The notes under the pieces were generated by a model that was given only the letters and a program-made list of their open reading frames with translations, was not told where the DNA came from and did no database searches. 64,000 nucleotides of DNA from Gammaproteobacteria bacterium (lineage in GTDB: Bacteria; Pseudomonadota; Gammaproteobacteria; Steroidobacterales; Foliamicaceae). Shown here piece by piece: positions 567 through 45,459 of the stretch. The stretch's first letter is position 1, and each line of letters opens with the position of its first letter. The stretch covers positions 1,854,553-1,918,552 of the forward strand of contig OY762933.1 in assembly GCA_963666765.1 (NCBI GenBank), written 5' to 3'. The translations under genes and the position numbers were made by a program.

Positions 567-2531
567 TTACTCGGGCAGCGCGAACGCGACCAGCGCGTCG
601 GACTGTGCCGTGCCGACGCGCGCGTTACCCCCGGCGGCGATCACGACGTATTGCCGGCCGCCGGCGCGATAGGTGATCGGCACCGTCATCCCCGGAGCGG
701 GAAGCTTGCCGGTCCACAGTTCCTCGCCGGTCTCGATATCGAGGGCGCGCAGGTTGTGATCCAGCGTTGACGCCACGAACACGAGGCCGCCGGCCGTAGC
801 GATCGGACCCCCCACGCTGGGCGAACCCCAGGCGAAAGCCGCCGGCAGCGTAATGCCCATGGCCCGCAAGCGGCCGAGCGGGATCTGCCAGCGCATTTCG
901 CCGCTGTCCATGTCGATGGCGCTCAAGGTCCCCCAGGGCGGCGGCGTGCAGGGGAAGCCGGACGGCGACATCCAGACTTCGCCCTCCACCCGGTACGGAG
1001 TTCCGCGCAGGGGACGGTTCAGGTAGTCCATCGGGCCCTCGGGCCGACCCTCGCCCGAAGGCGCGAAACGGATCCAGGTGGCCAGGTTTTCCGCCTTGAT
1101 CACCAGCAGGTTGGTGGCGGGATCGTAGGCGGCGCCGCCCCAGTTGCCGCCTCCCAGCGCCGAGGGAAAGAGGATGCTGCCGCGTTGGCTGGGCGGCGTA
1201 TAGAGTCCCTCGTAGCGCGACTGGTCAAACCGCTTGCGGCACCAGTTGCGGTCCAGCGCGGTAATCCCGAAGAGGCTCTCGCGGTCCAGTTCCGTGCGGG
1301 CGAAGGTGGCGATCCCCGTGGGTATGGGTTGGGTGGGCGAGGCGTTGTCCTCCGGCAGGTCGGACGGGGGCATTTCGCGCTCCTCAATGGGAAACACCGG
1401 TTCGCCGGTGGCGCGGTCAAAGACGAACAGGTGGCCGCTCTTGGTCTGCTGAATCGCAACATCGCGCAGCTCGCCGTCCTTGCGTATGGTCACGAGCAGC
1501 GCATGGCCGGGCAGATCGTAGTCGTACAGATCATGGTGGGTGGTCTGGAACGACCAGCGCGGCCTGCCGGAAGTCCCGTCGACGGCCACTACCGCGTTGA
1601 CCAGCGGCATTTCCACGCGCCGCCCGCCACCGTAGTAGTCGGCCGAGGGGCTGGTGGTGGGCAAAAACACAAGGTTCAGGCCCGGGTCGGCGCTCATCGT
1701 CGTCCAGACGTTGGCCGCCCCCGTCAGCGCGCTCGCTTCCGGAGGAATCGGATTGAACTCCCAGGCCATGTCGCCGGAGCGCACATCGAAGGCGCGCACG
1801 ACGCCGTCGATCGCGTCGGCCACGCCATCGTCCGAGCCGCTGCCGGCAACGACCAGGTCGCCCAGAATGGCCGGTGGCGACGACATGCCGCGCACCTGGC
1901 CCTCTCCGTAGCCCTCGTAGTCCCAGTGCGACACATACCCCGGATGCGCCGTGGCGGCGCCGAAATCGAGGCAGGCTTCGCCGGTGAGCGCATCGATGGC
2001 ATGAATGGCGCCGGTGAAATCGCCCTTGAAGATGCGCCTGGCACAGGGCTCGGACGATTCTTCCGCCTGTTCCCAATAGGCGATGCCGCGGCAGGTACTG
2101 GGGCGGCGCTCGCCGGCGCGTTCGGCCTCGCCGCCCCTGAGCGCGGCGTGCGCGTCGTAGACCCACTCCTCCTGCCCGGTGGCCGCATCGATCGCGAACA
2201 CGCGGTTAAACGGCGTGCAGAAATACACAAGACCGTTGACCATCAGCGGCACCGCTTCGTGCGAAGAGCCGACGCCCTGCGGCCCTTCGGCGTAGTCGCC
2301 GCTGTGATGTATCCAGGCCTGCTCGAGACCGCGTACGTTTTCCCGGGTTATCTCATCCAGCGGGGAATACTGGCTGCCGCCGGGGTCGCGTCCGAAATTG
2401 CGCCATTCGCCCGCAGCGTCGGAACTTTCCGGCGCCGCCTGCGCGTAGGCAGCCTGAGCCGTCGCGGCCATCAGCAGGCATGCCGCGACCCGAAGGCCCC
2501 GCAAGAGGGCGGCCCCTATTGGTGCGTTCAA
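567..2531 (-). CDS. PQQ-dependent (quinoprotein) dehydrogenase, secreted
   Basis: 654-aa ORF with a signal peptide (LRVAACLLMAATAQAAYA). The motif WRNFGRDPGGSQYSPLDEI and Trp-rich propeller repeats are typical of the PQQ glucose/alcohol dehydrogenase family. The listed start is TTG and overlaps the upstream stop (TTGA), so the true start may lie a few codons downstream. Confidence 0.8.
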   Translation of the reverse strand: MNAPIGAALLRGLRVAACLLMAATAQAAYAQAAPESSDAAGEWRNFGRDPGGSQYSPLDEITRENVRGLEQAWIHHSGDYAEGPQGVGSSHEAVPLMVNGLVYFCTPFNRVFAIDAATGQEEWVYDAHAALRGGEAERAGERRPSTCRGIAYWEQAEESSEPCARRIFKGDFTGAIHAIDALTGEACLDFGAATAHPGYVSHWDYEGYGEGQVRGMSSPPAILGDLVVAGSGSDDGVADAIDGVVRAFDVRSGDMAWEFNPIPPEASALTGAANVWTTMSADPGLNLVFLPTTSPSADYYGGGRRVEMPLVNAVVAVDGTSGRPRWSFQTTHHDLYDYDLPGHALLVTIRKDGELRDVAIQQTKSGHLFVFDRATGEPVFPIEEREMPPSDLPEDNASPTQPIPTGIATFARTELDRESLFGITALDRNWCRKRFDQSRYEGLYTPPSQRGSILFPSALGGGNWGGAAYDPATNLLVIKAENLATWIRFAPSGEGRPEGPMDYLNRPLRGTPYRVEGEVWMSPSGFPCTPPPWGTLSAIDMDSGEMRWQIPLGRLRAMGITLPAAFAWGSPSVGGPIATAGGLVFVASTLDHNLRALDIETGEELWTGKLPAPGMTVPITYRAGGRQYVVIAAGGNARVGTAQSDALVAFALPE

Positions 2532-3712
2532 GCGTTGCGCGTTGCGTGAACCCGGCCGAAGAACAGCACGCCCTTCTTGGCCTCGCGCACCGTAAATCCG
2601 GCCTTCTCAATTTCGTTGGGAAAATGGATGCTCGCAAACTCGTTGCGCCACACTTCCTGGTTCCAGCGATGGTCCCACCAGCGGCGGAACTTGCGATAGC
2701 CCGTCGGTGGGTGCTCGTCGGTCGGGAAATCGAACGGCTGAAACACGCCGTTCGGACGCGTAATGCGCCGCACCTCGCTAATGATGTCCCTGGTGATACT
2801 CGCCGGGGTCTCGTGAAAGACGATGTACGAAGCGACCAGGTCGAAGAAACCGTCCGGAAAGCCCGTCTTCTCGCCCAGCGCCTGCACGAAGTGCAACTCC
2901 CGGCCGAGTTCGACCGCGCGCATGTGCGCATAACGCACCATCGGGGCGGACACGTCCAGTCCCCACACCTCGGCATCAGGAAAACGGTCCTTCAGCGCCA
3001 GTGTCAGCTGGCCGGATCCGCAGGCCAGATCGAGAATACGCTTGACTTTGCCGTCTGCCGGAGGCTCGACCGCCGCCGCCAGTTGCGCGTGCACCTCGTC
3101 CTGGTCGTTATGACCCATGTAGAAGTGGTTGGTGCCGTAGTGATAGATGTGACCGGCAAAGGGATCGCCCACGTATCCGCCGGGCTGGACGTGGATTTCG
3201 TGCGAAGCGTATTCCGGAACCTTGAGATCGGAGTCCAGCTTCACCGTACCCGGTCCGGCCTTGTCGGCGGCGTCCAGCTCGGCCAGGTAGATATCGGCCT
3301 TGCCGTGGAACTCCTCCTGCAGGATCTTCCAGCTGATCAGCTGGCCGCTGATCCAGTAGCGCATGCTGGCGCCGATCACCGGGTCGCGTTCCAGGACCTC
3401 GCGCAGCGCCTCGATCGACATGTCGCTCGTGGGATCGATGCCCTCTTCCTTGAAGATGTCCTCGGCGCGAACCTGGGCGGCACGGCCGAGAGGACCGTTC
3501 GACCAGACCCTGAAGCCGGTCAGGAAGTCCTGGCGGCTCTCCAGGTCGAGGCTGGACAGGCGCTCCAGCTTGCCGATGTTGCCGCGCGGCTCAAAGTCGT
3601 ACGGCGGTGAAGGCGGAGTAACCGTGGACGCGCGCGCCTTGCGCGTAGCCGCCGCGGCCGTAGCGGAAAAGGCCGCGGCCAGGCCGCCCAGAATCGTGCG
3701 TCGATTCATCAT
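2528..3712 (-). CDS. Class I SAM-dependent methyltransferase-fold protein with twin-arginine-like leader
   Basis: Motif I ILDLACGSGQLT and post-I WGLDVS are present. The N-terminus MMNRRTILGGLAAAFSATAAAA resembles a Tat signal. It is coupled to the upstream ORF by an ATGA overlap, and its stop overlaps the PQQ dehydrogenase start. Confidence 0.75.
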   Translation of the reverse strand: MMNRRTILGGLAAAFSATAAAATRKARASTVTPPSPPYDFEPRGNIGKLERLSSLDLESRQDFLTGFRVWSNGPLGRAAQVRAEDIFKEEGIDPTSDMSIEALREVLERDPVIGASMRYWISGQLISWKILQEEFHGKADIYLAELDAADKAGPGTVKLDSDLKVPEYASHEIHVQPGGYVGDPFAGHIYHYGTNHFYMGHNDQDEVHAQLAAAVEPPADGKVKRILDLACGSGQLTLALKDRFPDAEVWGLDVSAPMVRYAHMRAVELGRELHFVQALGEKTGFPDGFFDLVASYIVFHETPASITRDIISEVRRITRPNGVFQPFDFPTDEHPPTGYRKFRRWWDHRWNQEVWRNEFASIHFPNEIEKAGFTVREAKKGVLFFGRVHATRNA

Positions 3713-4068
3713 GACTGCCTCCTTCTCATGTCAAAAAGTTCGCGATCCAGGGGCGGCGTCTGGTTCGAACGCGAAGCGCCCACCGTGATCGAACCGAAGG
3801 TCCGCTCGATGAAGCCGTCGCGCTCGGCCCGCCAGGCGGCCTCCTCCTCGGCGCTGGGTTTATATCCCTCGATCATCTCGCGGGTCACCTTGCCGTGGTC
3901 CTCCAGCAGGCGCTCGGTGATCTTCGTGCGCCGGGCCTGTACCCAGAGCTCGGTGCTGATCGATACCAGGGCCGTCATCAGGTGATCCATCGCCGGATCC
4001 TTCATGAACGTCGCCTGGTCCGTGTCGGACTTGATGAAATCGGCCGTGTAGCCGGGATTGTCACTCAT
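3709..4068 (-). CDS. Small hypothetical protein (about 119 aa), first gene of the methyltransferase/PQQ-dehydrogenase operon
   Basis: ORF 3709..4254 trimmed to the ATG at 4068, which is preceded by GGGGGAGA. An alternative ATG lies at 4083. I see no signal peptide and recognise no family. The stop overlaps the methyltransferase ATG. Confidence 0.5.
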   Translation of the reverse strand: MSDNPGYTADFIKSDTDQATFMKDPAMDHLMTALVSISTELWVQARRTKITERLLEDHGKVTREMIEGYKPSAEEEAAWRAERDGFIERTFGSITVGASRSNQTPPLDRELFDMRRRQS

Positions 4069-4147
4069 GGTTATCTCCCCCATGCTGAACCCTTGATTAT
4101 AGGGCCTCACTTGCGCCTCGTTTATCCTACTTCCGCGCAGGATCGGA

Positions 4148-4259
4148 GGTGAGTGACGCGCCCCCTCCCTGTCGGGAGTTTGTGAGCCAGGGATGGCGGA
4201 ACAAAGCTCCATGGATGGATTCATGCGTCTCCCGACAGGGAGGGGGCGCGTCACTCACC
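4148..4259. repeat. Perfect 31-bp inverted repeat flanking a 50-nt spacer (large hairpin)
   Basis: ggtgagtgacgcgccccctccctgtcgggag (4148-4178) is the exact reverse complement of 4229-4259. The element is intergenic, between the helicase stop (4285) and the small-ORF start. Confidence 0.9.
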
Positions 4260-4284: not shown

Positions 4285-5853
4285 TCAGGAGTCGGGGGTG
4301 CTGAGGGAGAGAATGCGATCTACGCGGAAGGTTCGTTCGTCCCGGCGCAGCATGCACCATGCGCGCATGCCCAGAAACTCGCGACTCGAATAGGAGCGCA
4401 TGCCCACTTCCAGCGGCCGAACGCGGCGGCGCGTACGCACGTCGTTGCGCTTGAGGTACTCGATGTCCAAAGCGCTTTCCGTGGCGATGGCCTTCTCGAT
4501 GATTTCGAGCTTGGCATCGGCAGACAGGCTGCGTTCGGCACGCTTGTACTGCTCGCCGGTCAGGAAGCGCTGCACCCGCCAGTCGCAGCGAATGGAACCC
4601 GCCGTCAGCGGGCGGGTCAGCACCAGGCCTTCAAGGGAAGTACAGCGACTCAGGGCAACGTAGGCCTGCCCGGCGGCGAACACCCGGTCGAGATCGACCA
4701 CCATCCGCTCGAAGGTCTTGCCCTGGCTCTTGTGCACGGTCACCGCCCACGCCAGCCGGAAAGGAAACTGGGTGAAGGTTCCCGCCGGGCTGCTGACGAT
4801 GGACCCCTCGCGGGCCTCGAAACGGATCAGCTCCCATTCGTGGGGCTCGACGCGAACGCGGCGACCCGAATCGGCCAGGCGCACGAGCACATAGGCCTCG
4901 CCGCCGCCGATCTCCACGCCCTCGATCACGCCGATGCTGCCGTTGACCCAGCGCTGCGCGCCGTCGTTGCTCAGCAGCATGACCTGGGCGCCCGCCTTGA
5001 AGCGAAGCTGCGCTTCCGTAGGGTAGTACTCGCGGCCGAAGGCGCCCTGGATTACGGCATCGAACTGATGCCCCGGCGCGGCGAGCCCGTCAAGCCGGGT
5101 GCGGTTGATCAGTCCGGCCTTGCGGTTGGTGCCGGTCAGCGTGATGTAGCCGCCGTCATCGGGCGCCTCGAAATGGGGATCCACCCGCTGATTGAGGTGA
5201 TCGAGATCGCTGTCTTCAAGCGATTTCTTGCGAATGCGGTTCAACAACTGCACGAACCCCCGGTCGCGCTGCCGGAATACCCGCGTGAGTTCGATGATTT
5301 CGAGCTCGACGCCCTCGAGCGCGCGGGCGCTGAAAAAATGGGGGGAATCGTAGACCTGGCCCAGCGCCTCCCGCTCCAGCCCGGTAACCACCGGCGGCAG
5401 CTGGTAAAGGTCGCCGATGAACACCATGTGTACGCCGCCGAAGCGCGCGTTCGGGCTCGGACCGTAGCGCCGCAGAAACAGGTCCACGCAGTCGAGCAGG
5501 TCGGCGCGCAGCATCGATACCTCGTCGATGATCAGCGTGCGCAGTCTCCTGTAGAGACTTGCGTTGCGCGGCTTGCCGCGGCGCGCGGCGATTGCCTGGG
5601 GCGTTACGTCGATTCCGAAGCCGAAAAAGCGATGAACGGTCTGACCGCCCACGTTCAGCGCCGCCACGCCGGTAGGCGCCAGGACCACCGGGTCCCAGTC
5701 GACGCTTTGGCAGAAGTGGCCCAGGAGGGTGGACTTTCCGGTTCCCGCGCTGCCTGTTATCAGCAGGTGCCGGCCGCCCTGCTCCATGCCGTCAAGCGCG
5801 CGGGCGAATTCTTCGGTGATCTCCAGGTCCGGGGCGAGACTGTCCACGTGCAT
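4285..5853 (-). CDS. Pif1/RecD-like SF1B DNA helicase with C-terminal WYL domain
   Basis: Helicase motifs: GSAGTGKST (Walker A), LIIDEVSM (Walker B), GDLYQLPPV, VTVHKSQGKTF and YVALSRCTS. The C-terminal RRRVRPLEVGMRSYSSREFLGMRAWCMLRRDERTFRVDRILSL fits the WYL-domain pattern. I chose the ATG at 5853; the longest ORF start at 5892 would overlap lolB. Confidence 0.8.
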   Translation of the reverse strand: MHVDSLAPDLEITEEFARALDGMEQGGRHLLITGSAGTGKSTLLGHFCQSVDWDPVVLAPTGVAALNVGGQTVHRFFGFGIDVTPQAIAARRGKPRNASLYRRLRTLIIDEVSMLRADLLDCVDLFLRRYGPSPNARFGGVHMVFIGDLYQLPPVVTGLEREALGQVYDSPHFFSARALEGVELEIIELTRVFRQRDRGFVQLLNRIRKKSLEDSDLDHLNQRVDPHFEAPDDGGYITLTGTNRKAGLINRTRLDGLAAPGHQFDAVIQGAFGREYYPTEAQLRFKAGAQVMLLSNDGAQRWVNGSIGVIEGVEIGGGEAYVLVRLADSGRRVRVEPHEWELIRFEAREGSIVSSPAGTFTQFPFRLAWAVTVHKSQGKTFERMVVDLDRVFAAGQAYVALSRCTSLEGLVLTRPLTAGSIRCDWRVQRFLTGEQYKRAERSLSADAKLEIIEKAIATESALDIEYLKRNDVRTRRRVRPLEVGMRSYSSREFLGMRAWCMLRRDERTFRVDRILSLSTPDS

Positions 5854-5867
5854 TCGCCCCGCCCGGT

Positions 5868-6467
5868 TCAGCGAACCGGCGGCAACTCCCAATTCGTGAT
5901 CGCGACCTTCATGCTGGCGCCGGGCCCGGAAATATTGAGCCTTCGGGGAACGGCAAGGTCGCCCGAGCGGGCCAGCGCATTCACCTCGATGCGCCAGCCG
6001 TCCTGCCGGAATTCACGTACCGCGCCCTGACCGGAGCTGTATTCGGTGAACGGAGATCCGGGATCCGGCAGCCCGCGCAACCAGTAGGGAAGGCTTTTCA
6101 GCGGCGCGCTTTCGCACAGCATTTCCAGTTCATCGATCTGCATGCCGGGCGCGCACATCGAAACCCAGTCGCCCTCGCTCAACAGGTTGACGTCCCCGTC
6201 CTCGATCCGCACGCGCTCGGCGCCCACTCCCCAGGGCCCGCTCAGTTCGAGCTGGGCCAATGCGCCCTGCTGGCGCCACAACACGTTGGCCTGTGCACCC
6301 CGGCCCTCCCGGTTCAGCGCCACGCGGCCGCGCAGCCCCCAGGATTCAAGCTCCGCCAGCGCGGCCGCGTCCAGGACGGCGGGAGCGCGATTGCCGGCCA
6401 CCGTGCAGCCGGTCAGCAGCAGGACGACCGCAGCAAGAAGGCCGGCAACCGCGGCTGTCCGTCTCAC
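5868..6467 (-). CDS. lolB: Outer-membrane lipoprotein insertion protein LolB
   Basis: 199 aa with lipobox LLLTGC. The size and the conserved position after a TPR lipoprotein gene fit LolB. GTGA overlap with the upstream gene. Confidence 0.7.
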   Translation of the reverse strand: MRRTAAVAGLLAAVVLLLTGCTVAGNRAPAVLDAAALAELESWGLRGRVALNREGRGAQANVLWRQQGALAQLELSGPWGVGAERVRIEDGDVNLLSEGDWVSMCAPGMQIDELEMLCESAPLKSLPYWLRGLPDPGSPFTEYSSGQGAVREFRQDGWRIEVNALARSGDLAVPRRLNISGPGASMKVAITNWELPPVR

Positions 6468-11004: not shown

Positions 11005-11895
11005 TCAGCCGAAGCCGCGCATCTCGATGATGCGCTCGAAGAACGACGGACCGTCATCGTGCTCGGGCGACTGCTCGAATACCGGAGAAAGGGCCCGGGC
11101 GCGCTTGAGATAGCCGGAGTCCAGGTCCTCGAAGGACCGCACCTTTACCGCGTCGAAATGCCATATCACGTGGCCGGGCAGGATGCCCATTTCGTTGTAC
11201 GGCCGGCGGGTGGCCGAAAAGATGTTCCAGCCGCCGGAAGCAGCGGTCGGCTGACGCGGCTCCTCGCCCAGGATTTCGTGCGTCGCGGCGAAAAGGGAAG
11301 CATATTCCAGCGACGGCTGCGGAAGGATGGGAGGAAAGCGCGAGCCTTCCTGCAGGCGCAGGATGCCGTTGTCGTCGGCCCAGTCCAGGTGCAGGGGTTT
11401 CTCGGCGTAGTGGTCGGGAAATACCCGCTTCATGCTGCCGAACCATACCCCCATGGGGGTGTAGTAATGCCCTTCCTTGTGGCGAATGAAACTGGCCGGC
11501 AGCGTAACGGTAGCGCCGTTGAAGGGGCTGGTGTACTGGTCGATGAACTCGCCCGTCTCAAGATCGGTGAAGAAGGAGACCGTGGAGGGATAGCGCACCC
11601 ACACATGTTCTTCCACCTGCTTCCACCACCCGGTTTCGCTGCCCAGAAAACCGTACATGGGGGTGACGGCGTCTTCCTGTACGGCGAAGACCTTGCCGCG
11701 GGTCTTCCACACGCAGGGGTCGCCGCCTTCATTCCCGTAGGCGCGGACCATCGCGCGGCACTGCGCCTGGGGATCGCTCGGCAGTGTCAGTTTCTCGTCA
11801 GCGCCGTCGGCAGTCTCTTGCGCCATCAGCATTCGCGGCACGCCGGCCCCGATTCCCATCACGGCCGCGGCCTGCAGCAAATTCCTCCGATTCAT
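11005..11895 (-). CDS. Tat-signal protein, DUF1838-like family, paralogue A
   Basis: Start is the ATG at 11895 after GGGAGAGGG. The leader is MNRRNLLQAAAVMGIGAG. It carries the family block FFTDLETGEFIDQYTSPFNGATVTLP. Confidence 0.7.
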   Translation of the reverse strand: MNRRNLLQAAAVMGIGAGVPRMLMAQETADGADEKLTLPSDPQAQCRAMVRAYGNEGGDPCVWKTRGKVFAVQEDAVTPMYGFLGSETGWWKQVEEHVWVRYPSTVSFFTDLETGEFIDQYTSPFNGATVTLPASFIRHKEGHYYTPMGVWFGSMKRVFPDHYAEKPLHLDWADDNGILRLQEGSRFPPILPQPSLEYASLFAATHEILGEEPRQPTAASGGWNIFSATRRPYNEMGILPGHVIWHFDAVKVRSFEDLDSGYLKRARALSPVFEQSPEHDDGPSFFERIIEMRGFG

Positions 11896-12062
11896 GAGCC
11901 CTCTCCCAGGAATGTTCCGACAGAAGTGCGTAACGATAACGCACCCGGGAGTATCCGTGTTTTCAAGTCGGCATGCGGGAGACGGCGGTGCATCTGTGGG
12001 AGGACGCACGGGAAGCGTATGATTCCGATTTTCGCCGCAAAGGCCGTACGGCTGAGGACCCC

Positions 12063-13454
12063 ATGAGCGTATTGCCCGCCAAAGAGGCCCGTTTCGAATG
12101 GAATGTCCCCGTGGCCGTGGTGGGCGCAGGCGGATGCGGCCTGTGCGCCGGTCTCGCCGCCCGCCAGGCTGGCGCCGAAGTGCTCATACTCGAGCGCGAC
12201 GCCGCGCCGATCGGCACCACCGGCATGTCCACCGGCCTGATCCCGGGCGCCGGAACCCGGATGCAGCGCGAGAAGGGGATCGAGGACTCGCCGGAGTTGT
12301 TCGCCGGCGACATGCTCGCCAAGGTCAGGCAGCAGACCGATGCGGACGTGGTGCTGGCGCTGGCCCGCGAGTCCGCGCGCACCGTGGAGTGGCTGGCCGA
12401 CGAATGCGGCGTGGCGCTTTCGCTGGTCGACAGCTTCCTGTACTCGGGTCACAGCGTCATGCGTTTGCATGGCAGCCCCAACCGCACCGGCTCCGAACTG
12501 ATGGGCAGCCTGCTGGACGCCTGCACCGACGCTGGCGCCGACCTGTTGACTGACGCGCGCGTCAGCCACCTCTTCGCCGATGCCGAAGGGCGCATAAGCG
12601 GTCTGCGTTGCGAGCGGCCGGACGGCAGCACCGAGGACCTCGGCTGCGGAGCGCTGATCCTGGCCTGCTGCGGTTTCGCCGGCAACCAGGAAATGGTGGC
12701 CGAATATATCCCCGAACTGCGCTACGCGGAGTTCTTCGGTCATCCGGGCAACCAGGGCGAGGCGATACAGTGGGGCCGGGAACTCGGCGCGGCGATTGCC
12801 GACATCCGCTCCTACCAGGGCCACGGCGGTCTCGCGAAGGGTTACGGCGTTCCCATCCTGTGGCCGGTCATCCTGGAAGGCGGGATCCAGGTAAACCTCG
12901 ACGGCCGGCGCTTTTCCGACGAATCGCTGGGCTATTCCGAGCAGGCGATGAATGTCCTGGCGCAGCCTGATCACGTTGCCATCACGGTCTACGACCAGCG
13001 TCTGCACGAACTGATGCATGAGTTCAACGATTACCGCGAAGCGATCACCGCAGGCGCGGTCCGAAAAGCCTCGACCCCGGGAGAACTTGCCGAAATGTTC
13101 GGACTGCCGGCCGATGTCCTCGAGGAGACCCTGGCCGAGACGGCCATCCTGACCCGGGGCGAAGCGGCTGATTCTTTCGGCCGCGATTTCACCGGCAGGC
13201 CGGAACTCGCCGCGCCCTGGTACGGCGTACGCGTCACGGGCGCCCTGTTCCACACGCAGGGAGGACTAAGGGTGGATGCGCGGGCCCGCGTGCTTCGCGA
13301 AGACGGCAGCGCCTTCCCCAACCTGTTCGCCGGCGGCGGCGCGGCGCGCGGCGTTTCGGGCCCGTCGCGCTGGGGCTACATCGCTGGCAACGGCCTGCTC
13401 ACCGCTACCACCTACGGCAGGCTGGCGGGCGAAAGCGCCGCGAACCTGGCCTGA
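12063..13454 (+). CDS. FAD-dependent oxidoreductase (fumarate reductase / 3-ketosteroid dehydrogenase-like flavoprotein)
   Basis: Dinucleotide fold VAVVGAGGCGLCAGLAARQAG, plus C-terminal HTQGGLRVD and FAGGGAARG motifs. The ATG at 12063 follows GAGGA. No signal peptide. Confidence 0.75.
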   Translation: MSVLPAKEARFEWNVPVAVVGAGGCGLCAGLAARQAGAEVLILERDAAPIGTTGMSTGLIPGAGTRMQREKGIEDSPELFAGDMLAKVRQQTDADVVLALARESARTVEWLADECGVALSLVDSFLYSGHSVMRLHGSPNRTGSELMGSLLDACTDAGADLLTDARVSHLFADAEGRISGLRCERPDGSTEDLGCGALILACCGFAGNQEMVAEYIPELRYAEFFGHPGNQGEAIQWGRELGAAIADIRSYQGHGGLAKGYGVPILWPVILEGGIQVNLDGRRFSDESLGYSEQAMNVLAQPDHVAITVYDQRLHELMHEFNDYREAITAGAVRKASTPGELAEMFGLPADVLEETLAETAILTRGEAADSFGRDFTGRPELAAPWYGVRVTGALFHTQGGLRVDARARVLREDGSAFPNLFAGGGAARGVSGPSRWGYIAGNGLLTATTYGRLAGESAANLA

Positions 13455-27743: not shown

Positions 27744-29384
27744 ATGATTCCCTGTGCAAAATCGTTTGCGAGGTTTCTCTCCGTCAACTCCTTCGACTAC
27801 ATCGTCGTGGGCGCCGGTTCGGCGGGCTGCGCCGTGGCCAACCGTTTGACGGAGCATCCGGACACGCGGGTATTGCTGCTGGAGGCCGGCGGCGCCGACC
27901 GCTCGCTGTATATCCGCATGCCCGCGGCGATCATCCGCGCCATCGGCAATCCGAAGATCGACTGGTGCTATCAGGCCGAACCCGATCCCAGCCGCAATAA
28001 TCGGGTCGACCTGTGGCCGGCCGGCAAGACCCTGGGCGGCAGCAGCTCGATCAACGGCATGCTTTTCGTGCGCGGCGCGGCCGATGACTTCGATCGCTGG
28101 GCCGCGGAAGGCTGCCCCGGCTGGAGCTACGCCGACGTGCTGCCGTATTTCAAGCGGATGGAATCCACGCCGCTGGGCGACGACCGTTGTCGCGGCCGCA
28201 CCGGCCCGGTACGCACCGCGGCCCTGCGCACCACGCATCCGCTGGCGCACACCTTCGTGCAGGCCGCCGTCGAGACAGGCCTGACGCTCAACCAGGACTA
28301 CAACGGCGTCTCCCAGGAGGGCGTGGCCTATACCGAAGTGAACCAGCAGCGTGGCCGCCGATTTAACGCCGCGAGGGCCTATCTGCATCCCGTGCGCCGG
28401 CGCCGCAATCTCGTGCTGCGCACCCGTAGCGCGTGCCACCGGCTGCTGTTTCGGAACGGCCGCTGCGTGGGCGTGGAATATCGGAATGGAGGCCGGCTTT
28501 ACCGCGCCGAGGCCGCACACGAGGTGATCCTGTGCGCCGGCGCCATCGCCTCCCCCAAGCTTCTCATGCTGTCGGGGATCGGGCCCGCGGAGCAGCTGCG
28601 CGAGGCCGGTATCGAAGTCGTCAGGGACCTTCCGGGCGTAGGCGCGAATCTTCAGGAACACCCCGAGGGCATGGTGGGCATCGATGTGAACGTGTCCACC
28701 TATAACACCGAGATCAACAGCTGGAAGATCGTCCTGCACGGGCTGAACTGGCTGCTGTTCGGCCGCGGGCCCGCCACCAGCCCTTACCCGCACGCGGTGG
28801 CCTTCATCCGCTCCACTCCTGATGAGCCAAGACCGGACATCCAGGTGCAACTGGGTCCCTACGCGTTCAGTTTCTCGGAAGAAGGCGTGATTCCGTATGA
28901 CCGCCCGGCCATTTCGGCCGCGATCAACGTTTCCCATCCCCGTTCGCGCGGCAGCATACGGCTGCGCAGCGCCGATCCGAATGCACCCCCGATCATTTCG
29001 CACGGGCTGCTGGCCGACGACGACGATATGGAGCGGCTGATCAAGGGTTGCCGGAAGGTCCGTGAAATACTCAACGGCGCCGCGTTCGCGCCGTACCGCA
29101 TAGGCGAGCGGCTGCCCGGCCCGGACGTGCATAGCTACGATGAATGGCGCGAATACCTGCGCCGGACCGCCTTTCTCGGCTACCACCCCGTGGGCACATG
29201 CAAAATGGGCACAGACGCGCTGGCGGTCACCCGGCCCGATTTGAGCGTGCACGGCATCGACGGGCTACGCGTTGCCGACGCTTCGGTGATGCCCAGTCTG
29301 ACCAGCGGCAATACCAACGCCACCGCGATGATGATCGGCGAGCGCGCGGCGGACCTCATCCGAAATAGCGGCGACGGCCGATGA
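27744..29384 (+). CDS. GMC-family FAD oxidoreductase (choline dehydrogenase-like)
   Basis: FDYIVVGAGSAGCAVANRL, GGSSSINGM, and the C-terminal HPVGTCKMG...NTNATAMMIGERAAD. Confidence 0.9.
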   Translation: MIPCAKSFARFLSVNSFDYIVVGAGSAGCAVANRLTEHPDTRVLLLEAGGADRSLYIRMPAAIIRAIGNPKIDWCYQAEPDPSRNNRVDLWPAGKTLGGSSSINGMLFVRGAADDFDRWAAEGCPGWSYADVLPYFKRMESTPLGDDRCRGRTGPVRTAALRTTHPLAHTFVQAAVETGLTLNQDYNGVSQEGVAYTEVNQQRGRRFNAARAYLHPVRRRRNLVLRTRSACHRLLFRNGRCVGVEYRNGGRLYRAEAAHEVILCAGAIASPKLLMLSGIGPAEQLREAGIEVVRDLPGVGANLQEHPEGMVGIDVNVSTYNTEINSWKIVLHGLNWLLFGRGPATSPYPHAVAFIRSTPDEPRPDIQVQLGPYAFSFSEEGVIPYDRPAISAAINVSHPRSRGSIRLRSADPNAPPIISHGLLADDDDMERLIKGCRKVREILNGAAFAPYRIGERLPGPDVHSYDEWREYLRRTAFLGYHPVGTCKMGTDALAVTRPDLSVHGIDGLRVADASVMPSLTSGNTNATAMMIGERAADLIRNSGDGR

Positions 29385-29451
29385 CGCCCAACGCCACAGG
29401 CCCAAGGCATTAGCCGGTCAGCCACCGAAACTTCAAGGGAGAAAACGAACC

Positions 29452-30327
29452 ATGGTCAACAGACGCACTTTCGTTACCGCCGCGGCCGGCGCGACCGGCT
29501 CATTGCTGGGGGCGCGGGCGCTTGAGGCCGCCGCACCCAAATCGGTCAGCCCGCCGGTAAGCCGGGTCGTCTCCGAGTTCCTCCATTTCGACGACCCGGT
29601 GGAGGAGTTTCGCGCGCAGATGCGCATGGAGCGCGACCTGGTCGAGGACCAGGGCACGACGCTGACCTGGTACCACTGGCTCGTATTCGTCATACCCGGG
29701 GGACGGCGCCCGGAACCCCTGATCCGCTACGAAGGAATCGAGTTCAGCTACTTCCGGCATCTCGGCGACCACAACTACCGCATCCATGCGCACAATGTTT
29801 CCTTCCCGCGCGACCTCAAGACCAACGCGTTCACGGATTCCGTGACCAATCCCATAACGGGCGAGCTTGTCGAGGTGCCCGTGACGCCGCTGCTAACCGA
29901 TCCGGGAACGATCGGGAGTCCCACCGGCTTTCGCAACCTGTCCGGCGACGGCTTTGTCCAGGCGCCCTACCGCAAGTTCCGGATCGAGAACGACCTGATC
30001 AAGATGGACCTGGTGCGCAGCGCCCCGCCCGACTGGCCTGCAACGCACATCGAGAATTCCTGCAACTGGGTGGAATTCGACCTGTTCGCGAACGAAACCA
30101 TCACTTCGTTACCCGCCCATTTCTGCGGACACTACGCATTCGAAAATCCCGCGTGGCTGAAGATGCCGGAAGGCATGGGCCACCTGGCGGGATTCTGGGA
30201 CGGCAAGAAAGTCAATTCCGCGTCCGAACTGCCGCGCGAGTTTCTCGACCGCATGGAGCGCGAATATCCGGAACTGCTCGAGCCACGCTGGGGCGAATTC
30301 GAGCGCCCGATCCCGTTTGATCTCTAG
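29452..30327 (+). CDS. Tat-signal protein, DUF1838-like family, paralogue B
   Basis: Leader MVNRRTFVTAAAGATGSLLGARA and family block FPRDLKTNAFTDSVTNPITGELVEVP. AAGGGAGAA lies upstream of the ATG. Confidence 0.7.
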   Translation: MVNRRTFVTAAAGATGSLLGARALEAAAPKSVSPPVSRVVSEFLHFDDPVEEFRAQMRMERDLVEDQGTTLTWYHWLVFVIPGGRRPEPLIRYEGIEFSYFRHLGDHNYRIHAHNVSFPRDLKTNAFTDSVTNPITGELVEVPVTPLLTDPGTIGSPTGFRNLSGDGFVQAPYRKFRIENDLIKMDLVRSAPPDWPATHIENSCNWVEFDLFANETITSLPAHFCGHYAFENPAWLKMPEGMGHLAGFWDGKKVNSASELPREFLDRMEREYPELLEPRWGEFERPIPFDL

Positions 30328-36319: not shown

Positions 36320-37249
36320 CTAATGCGACTTGATTGTGAGTGTTTGCTCCGCGAAGCGCCGCAGATCGGCGTTGAAGCGTTCCGGCTGCTCGATAAACAC
36401 CGAGTGCCCGGCCCCTTCGTACACGGTAAGGCTCATGTTCTCGTGACTTGCAGCGAGTTCAGCCCCGTCGTCGAGCTGATAAGGATTGTCCTTCTCTCCC
36501 AGGCAAAACAGCACCGGCAGGGACAGTTGCCCGACCATGTCCTGGTTATCGAGCCGGCGGTGCGCCATGGCGCGCCGGACATAGGGCGGCAGCATCAGGC
36601 CGATGGCCCGAAACAACTGGAGCTCTTGTTCGGGCAGGGGTGATGCCGTAAGCAGGGGGATCACCCGCTCGCCGGCGCGAATATAGTCGATCAGGTCCGG
36701 GCTGCTCTGCAGTTCGCGGATTTTCGCAAACTCCTCGGCGTCGGGGTCGTCGTCCCCCGAGGGCATCCGGAAGGGCCTCAGGGCGCCCTGGCCGCCGGTC
36801 AGAATGATTCCCGCGATGCCGCTGTCGCCGAACTCGCGGATATAGTCCATCGCGACCATCGTGCCGTACGACCAGGCGACCACCACCGGCCGGTCCAGCC
36901 CGGTCGCCGCGATCACGGCGGCGACGTCCCGGGCCCAAACCGCGGACTCGCTGTAGGACTCCGTAGTCCACGGCTTGCCGGACGCCCCATGCCCCCTGAG
37001 GTCGAAGGACACGAGGTAATAATCATCAGCGAGATTCGAATCCATTTGCCGGACGAAACTGTAGTGGCTTTGACCGAAGCCATGGATAAGCAGGATCGCG
37101 GGCGAGGCCGGGTCCCCGGCCGTGACGACGTTAAGAGGCACGCCGTCCGCGCCTTCCACCGTTCGGTAGTCCCAGTCCGCCAGCGAGTACTGCGGCAGCA
37201 GCACCGCAAACAGCAGCGCAACAAGAGGCAAGAGCCTTCGCAAATTCAT
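36320..37249 (-). CDS. Secreted alpha/beta-hydrolase (ABH1)
   Basis: Sec signal LLPLVALLFAVLLPQYSLA, an oxyanion region LLIHGFGQS, and a nucleophile elbow VAWSYGT. Confidence 0.8.
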   Translation of the reverse strand: MNLRRLLPLVALLFAVLLPQYSLADWDYRTVEGADGVPLNVVTAGDPASPAILLIHGFGQSHYSFVRQMDSNLADDYYLVSFDLRGHGASGKPWTTESYSESAVWARDVAAVIAATGLDRPVVVAWSYGTMVAMDYIREFGDSGIAGIILTGGQGALRPFRMPSGDDDPDAEEFAKIRELQSSPDLIDYIRAGERVIPLLTASPLPEQELQLFRAIGLMLPPYVRRAMAHRRLDNQDMVGQLSLPVLFCLGEKDNPYQLDDGAELAASHENMSLTVYEGAGHSVFIEQPERFNADLRRFAEQTLTIKSH

Positions 37250-38061
37250 AGGTTGTCCTCCTCAAGGAATTCCGGATCCAGCGTTCGCAACTCGGCCTGA
37301 ATGGCCTGCGGATAATCGCCCGGACCGGCCAGCTTGGCGCCGGCCGCATGCCACCAGAGCGAACCCGGCCGCTGCATGCGCATCCACTCGCGCCAGTGCT
37401 CGACCGCGGTGAAACTCAGCCGGCACGGGACCCGGGTCGCCATGGGATCGGCCAGTTGCCCAGCATCTCCGGAAAAGATCATAAGGTCGGTATCCGGCTG
37501 CAACGCGCGCGCCACCGGGCTTGCGATGCGGTCCGTCAGGTGCACGACGTCGCCCAGCATGAACCACGGACGGATTGCGCGTGGCGGCGTGCCGGGTTCG
37601 TCTTCCACGGGCGCCATGCCATCAGTGAGCAACCGCGCGGCCGATGGTCCGTAACGCGTGACCGGCGGCTCGCAAAGCCTGTCGTTATACGGATTCAGCC
37701 AGTTCTTGAGCGGCTGTTCCGTTTCCCAATCCAGCAGGATGCCCACGTAGCGGGTTTCCAGGAGAAATTCCAGCGCGGACACCCGCGTATAGCGGCTGCG
37801 CTGCGCGCCGATCAGCTTGAACAGCGGCCGTGGCGCCTCTTCGGACACCAGCCCGTACACGTCGCCCCGGACAATGTCGTAGACCGGCCCGCCGGCCAGG
37901 TCGCCACGCAACTTGACGTAAGCCGTGAGGTTGCTCTCGGGGTCGTCGAGCCCGAGTTCGGTTTCGGGGACGCCGGAATTCTTCGCCCACGCGTGACGCT
38001 CCACGCCGATCCCCAGAGAGCCGATGCCGGCAAGCGCTGCGCGGCGTGTCATTTCTGCCAT
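37246..38061 (-). CDS. Tat-signal protein, DUF1838-like family, paralogue D
   Basis: The ATG at 38061 lies 9 nt after GGAGGA. Leader MAEMTRRAALAGIGSLGIG and family block ILLDWETEQPLKNWLNPYNDRLCEPP. ATGA overlap with ABH1. Confidence 0.65.
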   Translation of the reverse strand: MAEMTRRAALAGIGSLGIGVERHAWAKNSGVPETELGLDDPESNLTAYVKLRGDLAGGPVYDIVRGDVYGLVSEEAPRPLFKLIGAQRSRYTRVSALEFLLETRYVGILLDWETEQPLKNWLNPYNDRLCEPPVTRYGPSAARLLTDGMAPVEDEPGTPPRAIRPWFMLGDVVHLTDRIASPVARALQPDTDLMIFSGDAGQLADPMATRVPCRLSFTAVEHWREWMRMQRPGSLWWHAAGAKLAGPGDYPQAIQAELRTLDPEFLEEDNL

Positions 38062-38220
38062 TATCCGGTTTCCTCCAGCGAGGCGAGGCGCCAGTCCTGG
38101 CAATCGAGGCGCAGTGCAGCGTTCGGCCAACCGTTGATCCGGTCGATCCTGAAGTCGTCGCGGCGCGCTGAAGGTGAGTGTGAAAGAGACGTTCCCTTCC
38201 GCACCTCCATTGCTCTGATT

Positions 38221-42907: not shown

Positions 42908-43753
42908 CTAGCCTGCCAGCGCGCCCGCGGGGTCCTCGTAGATTTCCGGGTGCCGCGTCCTGATGAGTTCCTGCAGCCGGACCGGCATGGAATCGAACGA
43001 CGATACCTTGCGTCCGAAGCCGCGGGAAACGTAGTCGCCGGGCCTGTCGCCCATGCCCATCCAGGGCAGGTAGCTCAGGATATCGTTGAAGTGCCAGGTG
43101 GCGGGCGCATTCAGGACCTGGGGATTGGCCACGTCCTCAAGCGAGCCGTGATAGGTGCTCCAGTCGTTGCCGCGAAATGGCCGGCCGGCCTCAGGCGTCT
43201 CAGGTTCCATGCGGAATATGGCGTCGTCCCGGACCCAGACGTCGTCACCCTCGATGACGGCGGGGCCGAGAGGATGAATGCGAATACTCCTGAACCCTTC
43301 CCCGGCCGGCCGCTCCTCCGGAGACTCATCGATGCTGCGCACTTGCGTAGCTGGCGTCGCGGGGAAATAGCTGACTTCGACCTCCTGGCCCGTAAACGGG
43401 TTCTTGAACGTTTCCAGGAATTCGCCGGTTTCCAGATCAGTGTAATAGACCATGCTGATGGCCGTCGTTTCGTATGCTCCCTGGTCATTGAAATCCCGCG
43501 TCTTGAGAACTGCGCCCACATAAACGTTCCACAGCGGCGTGGAGATCTTGTCGACCACGGCCATCCTCAGCAGTTGCGCCCACCAGAAAACCAGACTGTC
43601 GTCCATCGTGTGCGCCAGCTTGCGGGTAATCATGAGCGTTTGGTGCGGATCGGATGGATCCAGATCCAGCAATTCCGCCCGCGCCGATGGCGCTCTCACC
43701 AGCGGCGCGGCGGCGGCAGCTCCAATAAGACCCAGTGCCGTTCTGCGTTTCAT
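42908..43753 (-). CDS. Tat-signal protein, DUF1838-like family, paralogue E
   Basis: The ATG at 43753 follows GGGAGAGAAG. Leader MKRRTALGLIGAAAAAPLVRA and family block YYTDLETGEFLETFKNPFTGQEVEVS. Confidence 0.7.
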   Translation of the reverse strand: MKRRTALGLIGAAAAAPLVRAPSARAELLDLDPSDPHQTLMITRKLAHTMDDSLVFWWAQLLRMAVVDKISTPLWNVYVGAVLKTRDFNDQGAYETTAISMVYYTDLETGEFLETFKNPFTGQEVEVSYFPATPATQVRSIDESPEERPAGEGFRSIRIHPLGPAVIEGDDVWVRDDAIFRMEPETPEAGRPFRGNDWSTYHGSLEDVANPQVLNAPATWHFNDILSYLPWMGMGDRPGDYVSRGFGRKVSSFDSMPVRLQELIRTRHPEIYEDPAGALAG

Positions 43754-43879
43754 TTCTTCTCTCCCGATTTGCCGATGGCCAGAGTCGATGAACACGTGAG
43801 CATCACACAATCACCCCCAGGCCTTCGTGCATCCTATACCGGATTATGCGTCCTGACTTCAGGAGCAAACGGCTGGAGG

Positions 43880-45358: not shown

Positions 45359-45459
45359 GGCACTAGCATGCCACGGAAAGGGCCTGGCCAATTGCAAACG
45401 GCCTGCGGCCTGTCTAGACTCGCAGGTTGGGAATACGCGCATCAACCGGGAGGCCCGCC

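Follow-up and report, generated by a model that had tools for sequence, protein, structure and literature searches.

Methylation by SAM is regarded as confined to the cell interior, since SAM is made and retained in the cytoplasm. The locus described here, in a 64,000-nucleotide stretch of a gammaproteobacterial contig (hereafter the window), raises the question of how a protein with a SAM methyltransferase fold could carry a twin-arginine (Tat) leader, and what it might do beyond the inner membrane. Three tightly packed open reading frames lie on the minus strand, at 3709–4083 or 3709–4068 (gene 1, a small protein), 2528–3712 (gene 2, the methyltransferase) and 567–2531 (gene 3, a PQQ-dependent dehydrogenase). 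A previous sequence-only reading of the window had proposed that the three genes are translationally coupled.

The stop codon of the small gene overlaps the start codon of the methyltransferase gene in an ATGA at 3709–3712 (minus strand). This overlap, read directly from the sequence, is certain, which bears out the proposed coupling of the two genes, and the same 4-nt overlap is found in loci L010, L094, L096 and L097. A Shine-Dalgarno-like GAAGGAGG (3718–3725, minus strand) is located 6 nt upstream of the methyltransferase ATG. The coupling proposed for genes 2 and 3 holds in part: the TTGA at 2528–2531 is present, with TTG 2531 as the most upstream start possible for the PQQ gene, but the overlap belongs to the longest reading only. 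An in-frame TTG at 2504, with AGGGG 8 nt before it, is at least as good a start, and would leave a 23-nt gap between genes 2 and 3 and no overlap. The two genes are co-oriented and contiguous under either start.

Gene 2 (2528–3712, minus strand) encodes a 394-aa protein composed of a Tat leader and two domains, the second of which has a class I SAM methyltransferase fold (AF2 model, pLDDT 88, pTM 0.86). The Rossmann-type core (residues 220–394; 2531–3055, minus strand) was delimited by Pfam matches, column counts and structure matches. Residues 226–322 match Pfam Methyltransf_25 with an E-value of 6e-20, and Methyltransf_25, _11, _12 and _31 all exceed the Pfam cut-offs, in agreement with the class I motifs noticed earlier. 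The landmarks of the core are motif I (R225-ILDLACGSGQ, nt 3008–3040), D253, E281, D291 and H300-E301, all invariant or near-invariant in 118 sequences. Motif I conforms to the pattern hh(D/E)hGxGxG and reads R225-I-L-D-[L/M]-G/A-C-G-x-G-Q at the end of strand 1; G234 is present in 118/118 sequences, with G or A at position 230 and G, S or A at position 232. The acidic residue with which strand 2 ends, and which binds the ribose hydroxyls, is D253 (W-G-[I/L]-D); it is likewise found in 118/118 and is kept in leaderless relatives. The model has the seven-stranded Rossmann-like fold and matches more than 1000 methyltransferase chains with a Foldseek probability of 1.0; its core resembles SAM- or SAH-bound methyltransferases, with CouO/NovO, Coq5 and CysG/BelI as the closest structures. 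H300 aligns with the histidine of the CouO 'FHR' segment, the catalytic His-Arg motif of NovO/CouO. Since the SAM-binding motifs and the histidine at the catalytic position are invariant, the fold is not degenerate and the enzyme looks intact. The structure prediction suggested by the sequence-only reading yielded a confident methyltransferase fold; with the SAM motifs intact, its proposed way out, degenerate SAM residues revealing a non-enzymatic family, fails.

The core is preceded by a family-specific N-terminal region, recognized by its conservation (residues about 39–215; 3068–3598, minus strand). It holds a DxEPRGxxGRLERLPxLDLES motif and a helical domain, and its most conserved block is HEIHxQPGGYVGDPFAGHxYHYGTN...NxQDE. 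The strongest conservation of the protein thus lies outside the Rossmann core, in the His-rich part of this block, HEIHxQPGGY...H188...H191. The stretch of about 200 aa before the core, already flagged as unassigned, belongs to no family in Pfam or NCBIfam, and Foldseek found no solved structural relative beyond the methyltransferase core. Only 170 clusters at 50% identity, in 1.84 billion representatives, carry this region.

The leader comprises residues 1–28, MMNRRTILGGLAAAFSATAAAATRKARA followed by S (3629–3712, minus strand; RR codons at 3698–3703), and had been described as a textbook-looking twin-arginine signal. That description stands. Of the 120 closest homologues, 117 have an RR pair near the N-terminus, so that the orthologues retain the motif, and nothing else in the leader is invariant when 34 diverse leaders are aligned (mean column identity 32%). 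The motif of the window leader is N-R-R-T-I-L and that of the family RR-[T/S]-[L/I]-[F/L]-[G/A], in line with the (S/T)-R-R-x-hydrophobic-hydrophobic Tat consensus. The leaders have the weakly hydrophobic h-region, basic c-region and AxA cleavage site of Tat signals: the uncharged stretch is 18 aa long at the median, its Kyte-Doolittle hydropathy averages 1.36, R or K directly follows it in 97/113 leaders, and 98/113 contain an AxA site. The Tat-signal models PF10518 and TIGR01409 each match 7 of the 34 leaders (E-values of 4e-4 to 2e-3), and Tat-signal profiles are the only families that the leaders match repeatedly. The window's own leader matches only formate_TAT, with an E-value of 0.003 that is below cut-off, and misses the Pfam and TIGRFAM Tat-signal thresholds. 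No internal start could bypass the leader, because no further methionine occurs before residue 98 and the ATG at 3712 follows a strong Shine-Dalgarno sequence. Judged by these features, the leader looks like a genuine and conserved Tat signal. With the leader conserved and the SAM motifs intact, the paradox of an exported SAM enzyme, raised by the sequence-only reading, is real.

More distant relatives, with identities of about 30–48% and including proteins of cultured Novosphingobium, share the two-domain architecture and the small partner but have no leader. The leaderless homologues of 340–369 aa have in-frame stop codons just upstream, and the Novosphingobium homologues lack the leader likewise. 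A homologous small gene is present in seven of the eight leaderless contexts examined, and in a rough neighbor-joining tree the Tat forms are a derived crown. The best reading of these comparisons is that the family was ancestrally cytoplasmic and that a clade including this window acquired the twin-arginine leader. Since the leaderless relatives share architecture and partner, the methyltransferase/small-protein pair appears to predate export, which argues against a chaperone role of the small protein that is specific to Tat.

The small gene (3709–4068, minus strand) encodes a protein without a signal peptide. The length of 119 aa given previously is correct for a start at ATG 4068, whereas the alternative ATG at 4083, the coordinate given with it, yields 124 aa; homologues across the family have about 105–120 aa. 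As the sequence-only reading had it, the protein belongs to no recognized family: sequence searches of Pfam, NCBIfam and the PDB gave no match. Its AF2 model (pLDDT 72) contains two long helices, residues 25–58 and 73–103, and the predicted fold is a helical hairpin with no match in a Foldseek search of the PDB.

Genes 1 and 2 constitute a conserved two-gene module, which is widespread and unstudied. The small gene lies directly upstream of 76 of 105 informative methyltransferase gene copies from Gamma- and Alphaproteobacteria. The remaining 29 of the 105 have no adjacent partner, and therefore a strict 1:1 co-export is not required; most of them are second or later copies in tandem arrays, in which one small gene may precede two or more methyltransferase genes. 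The pairwise identity matrices of partner and methyltransferase correlate with r = 0.85 overall and 0.60 for deep pairs, against a permutation maximum of 0.10. Adjacency, translational coupling and co-divergence suggest that the two proteins interact physically. The family comprises more than 900 clusters at 90% identity; in GTDB species representatives it occupies 548 loci, and a genome often has several paralogues. Among the loci retrieved, the Tat clade has no cultured host. Apart from the small gene, no neighbor is broadly conserved around members of the methyltransferase family. Genes for Tat-leader FAD_binding_2 flavoproteins and ApbE, of periplasmic oxidoreductase type, recur near them.

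Gene 3 (567–2531, minus strand, from TTG 2531 or TTG 2504) had been read as a secreted PQQ dehydrogenase, and this assignment holds. PF01011 is matched over positions 1–595 of 595 (E 7e-194, 646 bits), indicating a full-length eight-bladed PQQ propeller. The match to TIGR03074 covers model positions 140–783 only and scores 586 bits, where the cut-off is 833. Model positions 1–139, which correspond to an N-terminal membrane anchor of several helices, have no counterpart, and the N-terminus is a predicted signal peptide. The gene 3 product is thus, as far as its sequence indicates, a soluble periplasmic form of the membrane-bound PQQ glucose/quinate/shikimate dehydrogenases (TIGR03074), which it resembles along the entire β-propeller; those enzymes have a five-helix anchor where the gene 3 product has a cleavable Sec-type signal. 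The PQQ gene adjoins the methyltransferase gene only in ten close loci (L010–L017, L019 and L021), in which the methyltransferases are 80–96% identical. It is absent from the orthologous Ca. Foliamicus loci L018, L020 and L036 (80–81% identity) and from all deeper relatives. The PQQ dehydrogenase is therefore a lineage-specific neighbor outside the conserved module, and should not serve to infer the module's function in annotation. The trio proposed earlier is not a conserved operon, an outcome that the sequence-only reading had itself named as refuting it, and only genes 1 and 2 travel together.

We lean, by a modest balance of probability, towards a heteromeric class I methyltransferase family in which one derived clade gained Tat targeting and crosses the membrane in folded form, probably carrying SAM and perhaps accompanied by its partner. 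The module would consist of a 390–400-aa catalytic protein, with an N-terminal helical domain and a Rossmann core, and a translationally coupled helical-hairpin partner. The catalytic protein would fold in the cytoplasm and bind there a nucleotide ligand, SAM or SAH, and probably also the signal-less partner. The Tat system would then transport it to the periplasm, where the leader would be cleaved after the AxA site; the choice of Tat over Sec would reflect the need to move a protein that is already folded, loaded with ligand and possibly oligomeric. In the periplasm the enzyme may act on a small molecule, probably of the phenol or enol type, a guess based on the weak similarity to CouO/NovO and on the heterogeneous neighbors. 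In the lineage of the window, a soluble Sec-exported PQQ dehydrogenase would have been added downstream and may share a periplasmic pathway. The periplasm is not known to have a source of SAM, which makes multi-turnover methyl transfer there hard to account for.

The supply of SAM would cease to be a difficulty if the exported protein no longer transferred methyl groups and served as a ligand-binding or non-methylating catalytic scaffold, or relayed a methyl group between two periplasmic substrates through SAH and SAM. RdmB, LepI and SpnF use SAM as a non-consumed electrostatic cofactor, and Tat typically transports proteins with cofactors loaded in the cytoplasm. The strict retention of SAM-binding residues and the placement of the strongest conservation in a His-rich block outside the Rossmann core also fit such a role. 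However, the His-Glu at the catalytic position and the SAM motifs are identical in the leaderless, presumably conventional relatives, and no mark of changed chemistry accompanies the gain of the leader; we consider this role unlikely, though worth keeping in view. That the RR leader does not function in export, so that the protein would be an ordinary cytoplasmic methyltransferase, is the least probable explanation and in our judgment very doubtful. It could account for the leader of the window scoring under the curated Tat-signal thresholds and for the existence of close leaderless relatives, but an unused extension of 28–35 aa would not keep its RR, its basic tail, its AxA and an uncharged stretch as long and as hydrophobic as in Tat signals across Alpha- and Gammaproteobacteria while every other leader position drifts.

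Two further explanations concern the neighboring genes, and we regard both as improbable. The small protein might be a REMP, a chaperone devoted to proofreading or escorting Tat substrates in the manner of TorD, NapD or PlcR, that binds the leader or the folded enzyme and stays behind in the cytoplasm, as its lack of a signal peptide and its coupled gene directly upstream would allow; a single small gene before two or more tandem methyltransferase genes is also what a shared accessory factor would produce. Nevertheless, searches of Pfam, NCBIfam and PDB sequences and a Foldseek comparison showed no resemblance to a known family of chaperones, the TorD/DmsD/NarJ, NapD and PlcR types included, and the protein is not restricted to Tat-leader clients: its homologues accompany leaderless methyltransferases, which offer nothing to escort, in L091–L094, L096, L097 and L099. 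A Tat-specific chaperone is disfavored on these grounds, and the chaperone-type partner imagined in the sequence-only reading, if a Tat chaperone was meant, is weakened, as the same protein adjoins evidently cytoplasmic enzymes. The equally improbable view that the three genes are one functional unit, in which the exported methyltransferase-fold protein modifies the PQQ dehydrogenase or methylates its substrate or product, draws on the contiguous, co-oriented trio, in which genes 2 and 3 are no more than 23 nt apart, on the retention of this arrangement in ten related loci, and on the recurrence of the other periplasmic oxidoreductase-type genes near family members. The distribution of the PQQ gene, and the restriction of broad neighbor conservation to the small gene, speak against it; action on the PQQ enzyme, as suggested before, would be at most a lineage-specific elaboration.

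The favored reading, a Tat-exported methyltransferase with a small partner, had no precedent in our search of the literature; parts of it have parallels. The best matches to residues about 219–359 are the aminocoumarin C-methyltransferases CouO/NovO (PDB 5m58, 5mgz) and CysG/BelI (9fc*, 9fd3, 9g0k), with an E-value of 2e-11 and a Foldseek probability of 1.0. Like the window enzyme, they have motif I in a class I Rossmann core and a histidine at the same position after strand 4, but their identity is only 22–26% and the query-normalized TM-score at most 0.40. They are cytoplasmic single chains of about 230 aa, and lack the leader, the 200-aa N-terminal region and the small partner. Trm112-methyltransferase heterodimers, such as Haloferax Trm112-Hvo_0019 (PDB 6f5z), likewise combine a class I methyltransferase with a small partner, which is obligatory in the Trm112 systems, and the 6f5z methyltransferase chain is among the Foldseek matches of the window enzyme. 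Trm112, however, is a zinc-knuckle β-protein with no sequence or fold similarity to the helical hairpin. Trm112 complexes work in the cytoplasm, and their target is the translation apparatus.

Tat substrates that are preassembled complexes or contain organic cofactors include HybO-HybC, DmsA-DmsB, PaoABC, the MelC1-MelC2 tyrosinase and the PLP enzyme PvdN. They resemble the module in having an RR leader on one subunit, a signal-less neighboring gene product, and folding and ligand loading before export. This concept is also set out in PMC10924467. None of these substrates is a SAM enzyme, and where SAM is normally consumed, the cofactors of these proteins are regenerated or serve in catalysis only; co-export is putative in the module described here, which may be a new case of Tat hitchhiking. 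A preprint describes mammalian METTL9 as a secreted SAM-type methyltransferase outside the cytoplasm (bioRxiv 10.64898/2025.12.23.696137); the enzyme is eukaryotic, uses the secretory pathway, belongs to an unrelated family and methylates protein histidines.

The combination of intact SAM and catalytic motifs with a strongly conserved Tat leader challenges the intracellular-only view of SAM chemistry. We speculate, tentatively, that SAM-based chemistry takes place in the bacterial periplasm through a whole methyltransferase clade that is loaded with SAM in the cytoplasm and ferried by Tat together with a signal-less partner, the SAM acting as a single-use methyl donor, a permanently bound cofactor or part of an SAH/SAM relay. 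If true, it would be the first prokaryotic methyltransferase system to be described outside the cytoplasm. The leaderless sister enzymes are ready controls for the question of periplasmic SAM chemistry, and the N-terminal domain and the small partner define two uncharacterized protein families.

Upstream of the small gene, a TATAAT hexamer is located at 4096–4101 on the minus strand. A promoter scan called no full sigma-70 site, so that any promoter role is putative. A perfect 31-nt inverted repeat with a 50-nt spacer spans 4148–4259 between an upstream helicase gene and the small gene; it is unique in the window, with 0 copies expected by chance.

The methyltransferase protein of the window (394 residues, minus strand, TGA stop codon at 2528-2530) is composed of a Rossmann core preceded by a helical N-terminal domain and a disordered leader, as predicted by AlphaFold2 from an 82-sequence alignment (pLDDT 88, pTM 0.86). 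Pfam assigns residues 226-322 to the class I methyltransferases (Methyltransf_25, E 6e-20), and the first ~200 residues match no specific family in Pfam or NCBIfam. Foldseek matches in the PDB are confined to the Rossmann core, the best being CouO/NovO, Coq5, and CysG/BelI. Motif I (R-I-L-D-[L/M]-G-C-G-x-G-Q), D253 at the end of strand 2, E281, D291, and H300-E301 are invariant or nearly so among 118 aligned sequences. The class I motifs recognized in the sequence-only reading are thus borne out, and, judged by its sequence, the methyltransferase fold is not degenerate. H300 is aligned by HMMER onto the histidine of the 'FHR' segment of CouO, the catalytic His-Arg motif of the CouO/NovO C-methyltransferases. 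Conservation within the family is highest in the block HEIHxQPGGYVGDPFAGHxYHYGTN...NxQDE, which is located just N-terminal of the core and has no solved structural counterpart in the Foldseek search of the PDB.

A search of 5.8 billion protein sequences identified 963 relatives, the best 120 of which are 49-92% identical and nearly all full-length (388-412 aa). A twin arginine is present within the first residues of 117 of these 120, and is the sole invariant position among 34 aligned, diverse leaders (mean column identity 32%). The leaders have the pattern RR-[T/S]-[L/I]-[F/L]-[G/A] followed by an uncharged stretch, with a median length of 18 aa and a mean Kyte-Doolittle value of 1.36 in the 113 scorable leaders. 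The stretch is directly followed by R or K in 97 of the 113, the next six residues carry a net positive charge in 90, and an AxA motif is found in 98. The twin-arginine pattern, uncharged stretch, basic 'Sec-avoidance' tail, and AxA motif are textbook features of Tat signals. Tat-signal profiles (PF10518, TIGR01409, and formate_TAT) are the only families repeatedly matched by the leaders (7/34 each); the leader from the window has only a sub-threshold match to formate_TAT (E 0.003). The next methionine is residue 98, so the leader cannot be bypassed by an internal translation start. The Tat signal proposed from the sequence is therefore retained among the closest homologues, and we conclude that the leader is probably under selection as an export signal. 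The methyltransferase itself is probably exported.

The window also encodes five paralogous DUF1838 (PF08894) proteins, each with a twin-arginine leader, at 11008-12183 (-), 29335-30324 (+), 37249-38220 (-), 42911-43810 (-), and 45418-46452 (+); one of them additionally matches Pfam TAT_signal. This set is an expanded family of predicted Tat-exported proteins with no assigned function. With five other Tat-leader proteins within 64 kb, all of them DUF1838, Tat export seems to be heavily used in the host.

The methyltransferase gene belongs to a row of three contiguous ORFs, all on the minus strand. The small ORF (3709-4068 or 3709-4083) precedes it, with a TGA stop codon overlapping the methyltransferase ATG (ATGA, 3709-3712) and GAAGGAGG positioned 6 nt 5' of that ATG. 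The longest reading of the third gene begins at TTG 2531 and overlaps the methyltransferase stop codon (TTGA); the in-frame TTG 2504, with AGGGG ahead of it, is just as plausible a start and would leave a 23-nt gap. Of the translational coupling originally claimed for all three genes, the overlap of the first two is thus read directly, whereas that of the second and third depends on the choice of start. Neither a sigma-70 promoter nor an operon terminator was detected in a promoter and terminator scan. Directly upstream of the small gene, at 4285-5892 (-), lies a gene for a PIF1-family helicase with a C-terminal WYL-like region, assigned through the syntenic gene in L010, the corresponding locus of a close relative. 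The helicase gene is situated between lolB and the small gene, a synteny retained in close relatives. The helicase and small genes are separated by an intergenic region with a perfect 31-nt inverted repeat (4148-4178 and 4229-4259, 50-nt spacer), unique in the window, which could act as the helicase terminator or as an operator, or be a MITE-like element.

The small protein has no signal peptide and no family match in Pfam or NCBIfam, and its PDB sequence and Foldseek searches returned only noise. AlphaFold2 predicts, from 56 sequences and with moderate confidence (pLDDT 72), a helical hairpin for which Foldseek detects no structural neighbours. The invariant residues D15, D28, E40, W42, R47, G59, E67, and R83 are mostly charged. 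Around distant methyltransferase homologues, a gene of 113-119 codons without a Pfam match, whose product is 41-42% identical to the small protein of the window, is located directly 5' of the methyltransferase gene, and the remaining flanks are unrelated. Scanning of GTDB species representatives yielded 548 loci. Across 84 non-redundant loci, the small gene immediately precedes 76 of 105 informative methyltransferase genes; most of the 29 exceptions are not the first gene of a tandem array. Pairwise identities of the small proteins and those of the adjacent methyltransferases are correlated (r 0.85 overall, 0.60 for deep pairs, permutation maximum 0.10).

Rhodospirillaceae MAGs (L034, L048, L053, L070, and L087) contain Tat-leader paralogues in tandem, the longest array being the five consecutive genes of L057 (2091-8501). 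Some arrays have no adjoining small gene. The arrays suggest substrate diversification and a sharable partner. Apparent fusions of the small protein with the methyltransferase (L087 3920-5338 and P0318) were rejected, as they look like frameshifted or read-through calls. A second, divergent small-protein homologue (103 aa, E 1e-5) is encoded at L004 4167-4478, and likewise in L005-L007 and L064; at L004 it is positioned 3' of an ABC-transporter gene and ~1.5 kb upstream of the canonical pair.

The third gene (567-2531) encodes a PQQ propeller dehydrogenase (PF01011, E 7e-194). Its NCBIfam match to the membrane-bound glucose/quinate/shikimate family starts only at model position 140; therefore, the membrane anchor is missing, and a Sec-type signal takes its place at the N-terminus. 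A PQQ dehydrogenase gene follows the methyltransferase gene in ten loci only (L010-L017, L019, and L021), where the methyltransferases are 80-96% identical to that of the window. It is absent from the orthologous loci of Ca. Foliamicus (L018, L020, and L036) and from all deeper relatives, at odds with a conserved unit of three genes. All-versus-all clustering of flanking ORFs, initially dominated by shadow ORFs on conserved DNA and filtered afterwards, revealed no third neighbour broadly conserved around the pair. Therefore, the module consists of the pair, and the trio is a local arrangement of recent origin. In the lineage of the window, the dehydrogenase may share a periplasmic pathway with the pair, at low probability, and the enzyme is uninformative about the methyltransferase family in general.

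Homologues of the methyltransferase without the leader were found by tblastn against plasmid sequences, on megaplasmids of cultured Novosphingobium strains (32-33% identity), whose PLSDB records contain no gene table at these loci. The N. resinovorum homologue (pSA1, L091 6929-8113, 394 aa) shares the two-domain architecture, starts with MEQYRQEHF, and lacks a leader. The 118-aa ORF just 5' of it is a homologue of the small protein (hhalign probability 86%, E 5e-6), as are ORFs upstream of leaderless methyltransferases in two other strains. The N-terminal region alone, used as a query in a full-sensitivity search of 1.84 billion representatives, retrieved only 170 clusters. Among 57 full-length representatives, ~18 have the twin-arginine leader, and ~38 are 340-369 aa long and begin at the mature N-terminal motif. 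In-frame stops a few codons upstream show that the leader is genuinely absent at L094, L095, and L099; L096 and L097 have in-frame upstream sequence without a stop, yet no signal-like leader. A small-protein homologue adjoins the leaderless gene at L094 (E 2e-24), L096 (1e-42), L097 (1e-17), and L099 (2e-19), with the same 4-nt overlap at the first three; among these five loci, only L095 lacks it. Rough neighbour-joining places the leaderless forms at the base of the tree and the Tat forms in a derived crown. Since leaderless methyltransferases have the same partner and a basal position, the pair appears to be an ancestral cytoplasmic unit that acquired the Tat leader later.

At L091 4550-10500, the leaderless pair is accompanied by ORFs for a ureidoglycolate-lyase-like cupin, a secreted feruloyl/enterochelin-esterase-like protein, a secreted alpha/beta hydrolase, and a hydrophobic protein taken as an MFS transporter from sequence alone. 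The region is possibly a catabolic cluster in a cultured, tractable host.

The small protein had been considered a possible chaperone-type partner. It cannot be a Tat-specific chaperone in origin, because its homologues adjoin methyltransferases that have no leader to escort; a role as subunit or activator of the methyltransferase is more likely. We lean slightly towards an account in which a Tat-clade methyltransferase would fold in the cytoplasm, take up SAM or SAH and possibly also the signal-less partner, and be exported in a folded, ligand-bound state. The Tat pathway would be used because the protein must cross the membrane folded. The chances that the partner is co-exported are about even. 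It is also possible that the exported enzyme draws on an extracytoplasmic SAM supply of a yet unrecognized kind, or that the SAM it contains is donated once. A non-consumed or recycled SAM cofactor seems unlikely; the Tat-clade sequences contain no sign of changed chemistry relative to the leaderless relatives. Literature searches on Tat or periplasmic methyltransferases turned up neither a SAM methyltransferase described as periplasmic or Tat-exported nor the phrase 'periplasmic methyltransferase'. The class I core is of a known kind; the derived putative export signal on it, the N-terminal domain, and the predicted partner family are new.

The closest genome is that of an uncultured gammaproteobacterium (L011, methyltransferase 96% identical). 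The related loci belong to MAGs with the label Gammaproteobacteria or Ca. Foliamicus, or to Rhodospirillaceae MAGs of freshwater and marine origin; many genomes encode several methyltransferase paralogues. Neighbours of the pair recur weakly, in 3-5 independent contexts each, and we therefore did not build a pathway from them. They include a Tat-leader FAD_binding_2 flavoprotein, a TonB-dependent receptor, FtsX/MacB ABC components, a Rieske/VanA-type oxygenase, a Tat-leader alpha/beta hydrolase, and ApbE. Rieske oxygenases are encoded a few kb or less from Tat-methyltransferase genes, at L044 8424-9587, whose product has a VanA_C (vanillate O-demethylase-type) domain, and at L044 4158-5531 and L031 8493-9629, which are BLAST-clustered homologues; they hint at methoxy-aromatic metabolism, in too few contexts to carry the assignment. 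FAD_binding_2 flavoproteins are encoded near family members in ~20 loci representing ~5 independent contexts (L010 12644-15854, L067 5005-6525, L057, L063, L069, L070, L075, L076, L086, and L090), and the sequences examined, such as that of L067, have a Tat-type twin-arginine leader. In close relatives, two copies lie immediately outside the left boundary of the window. A gene for the flavin transferase ApbE is located nearby in L065, L075, and L090.
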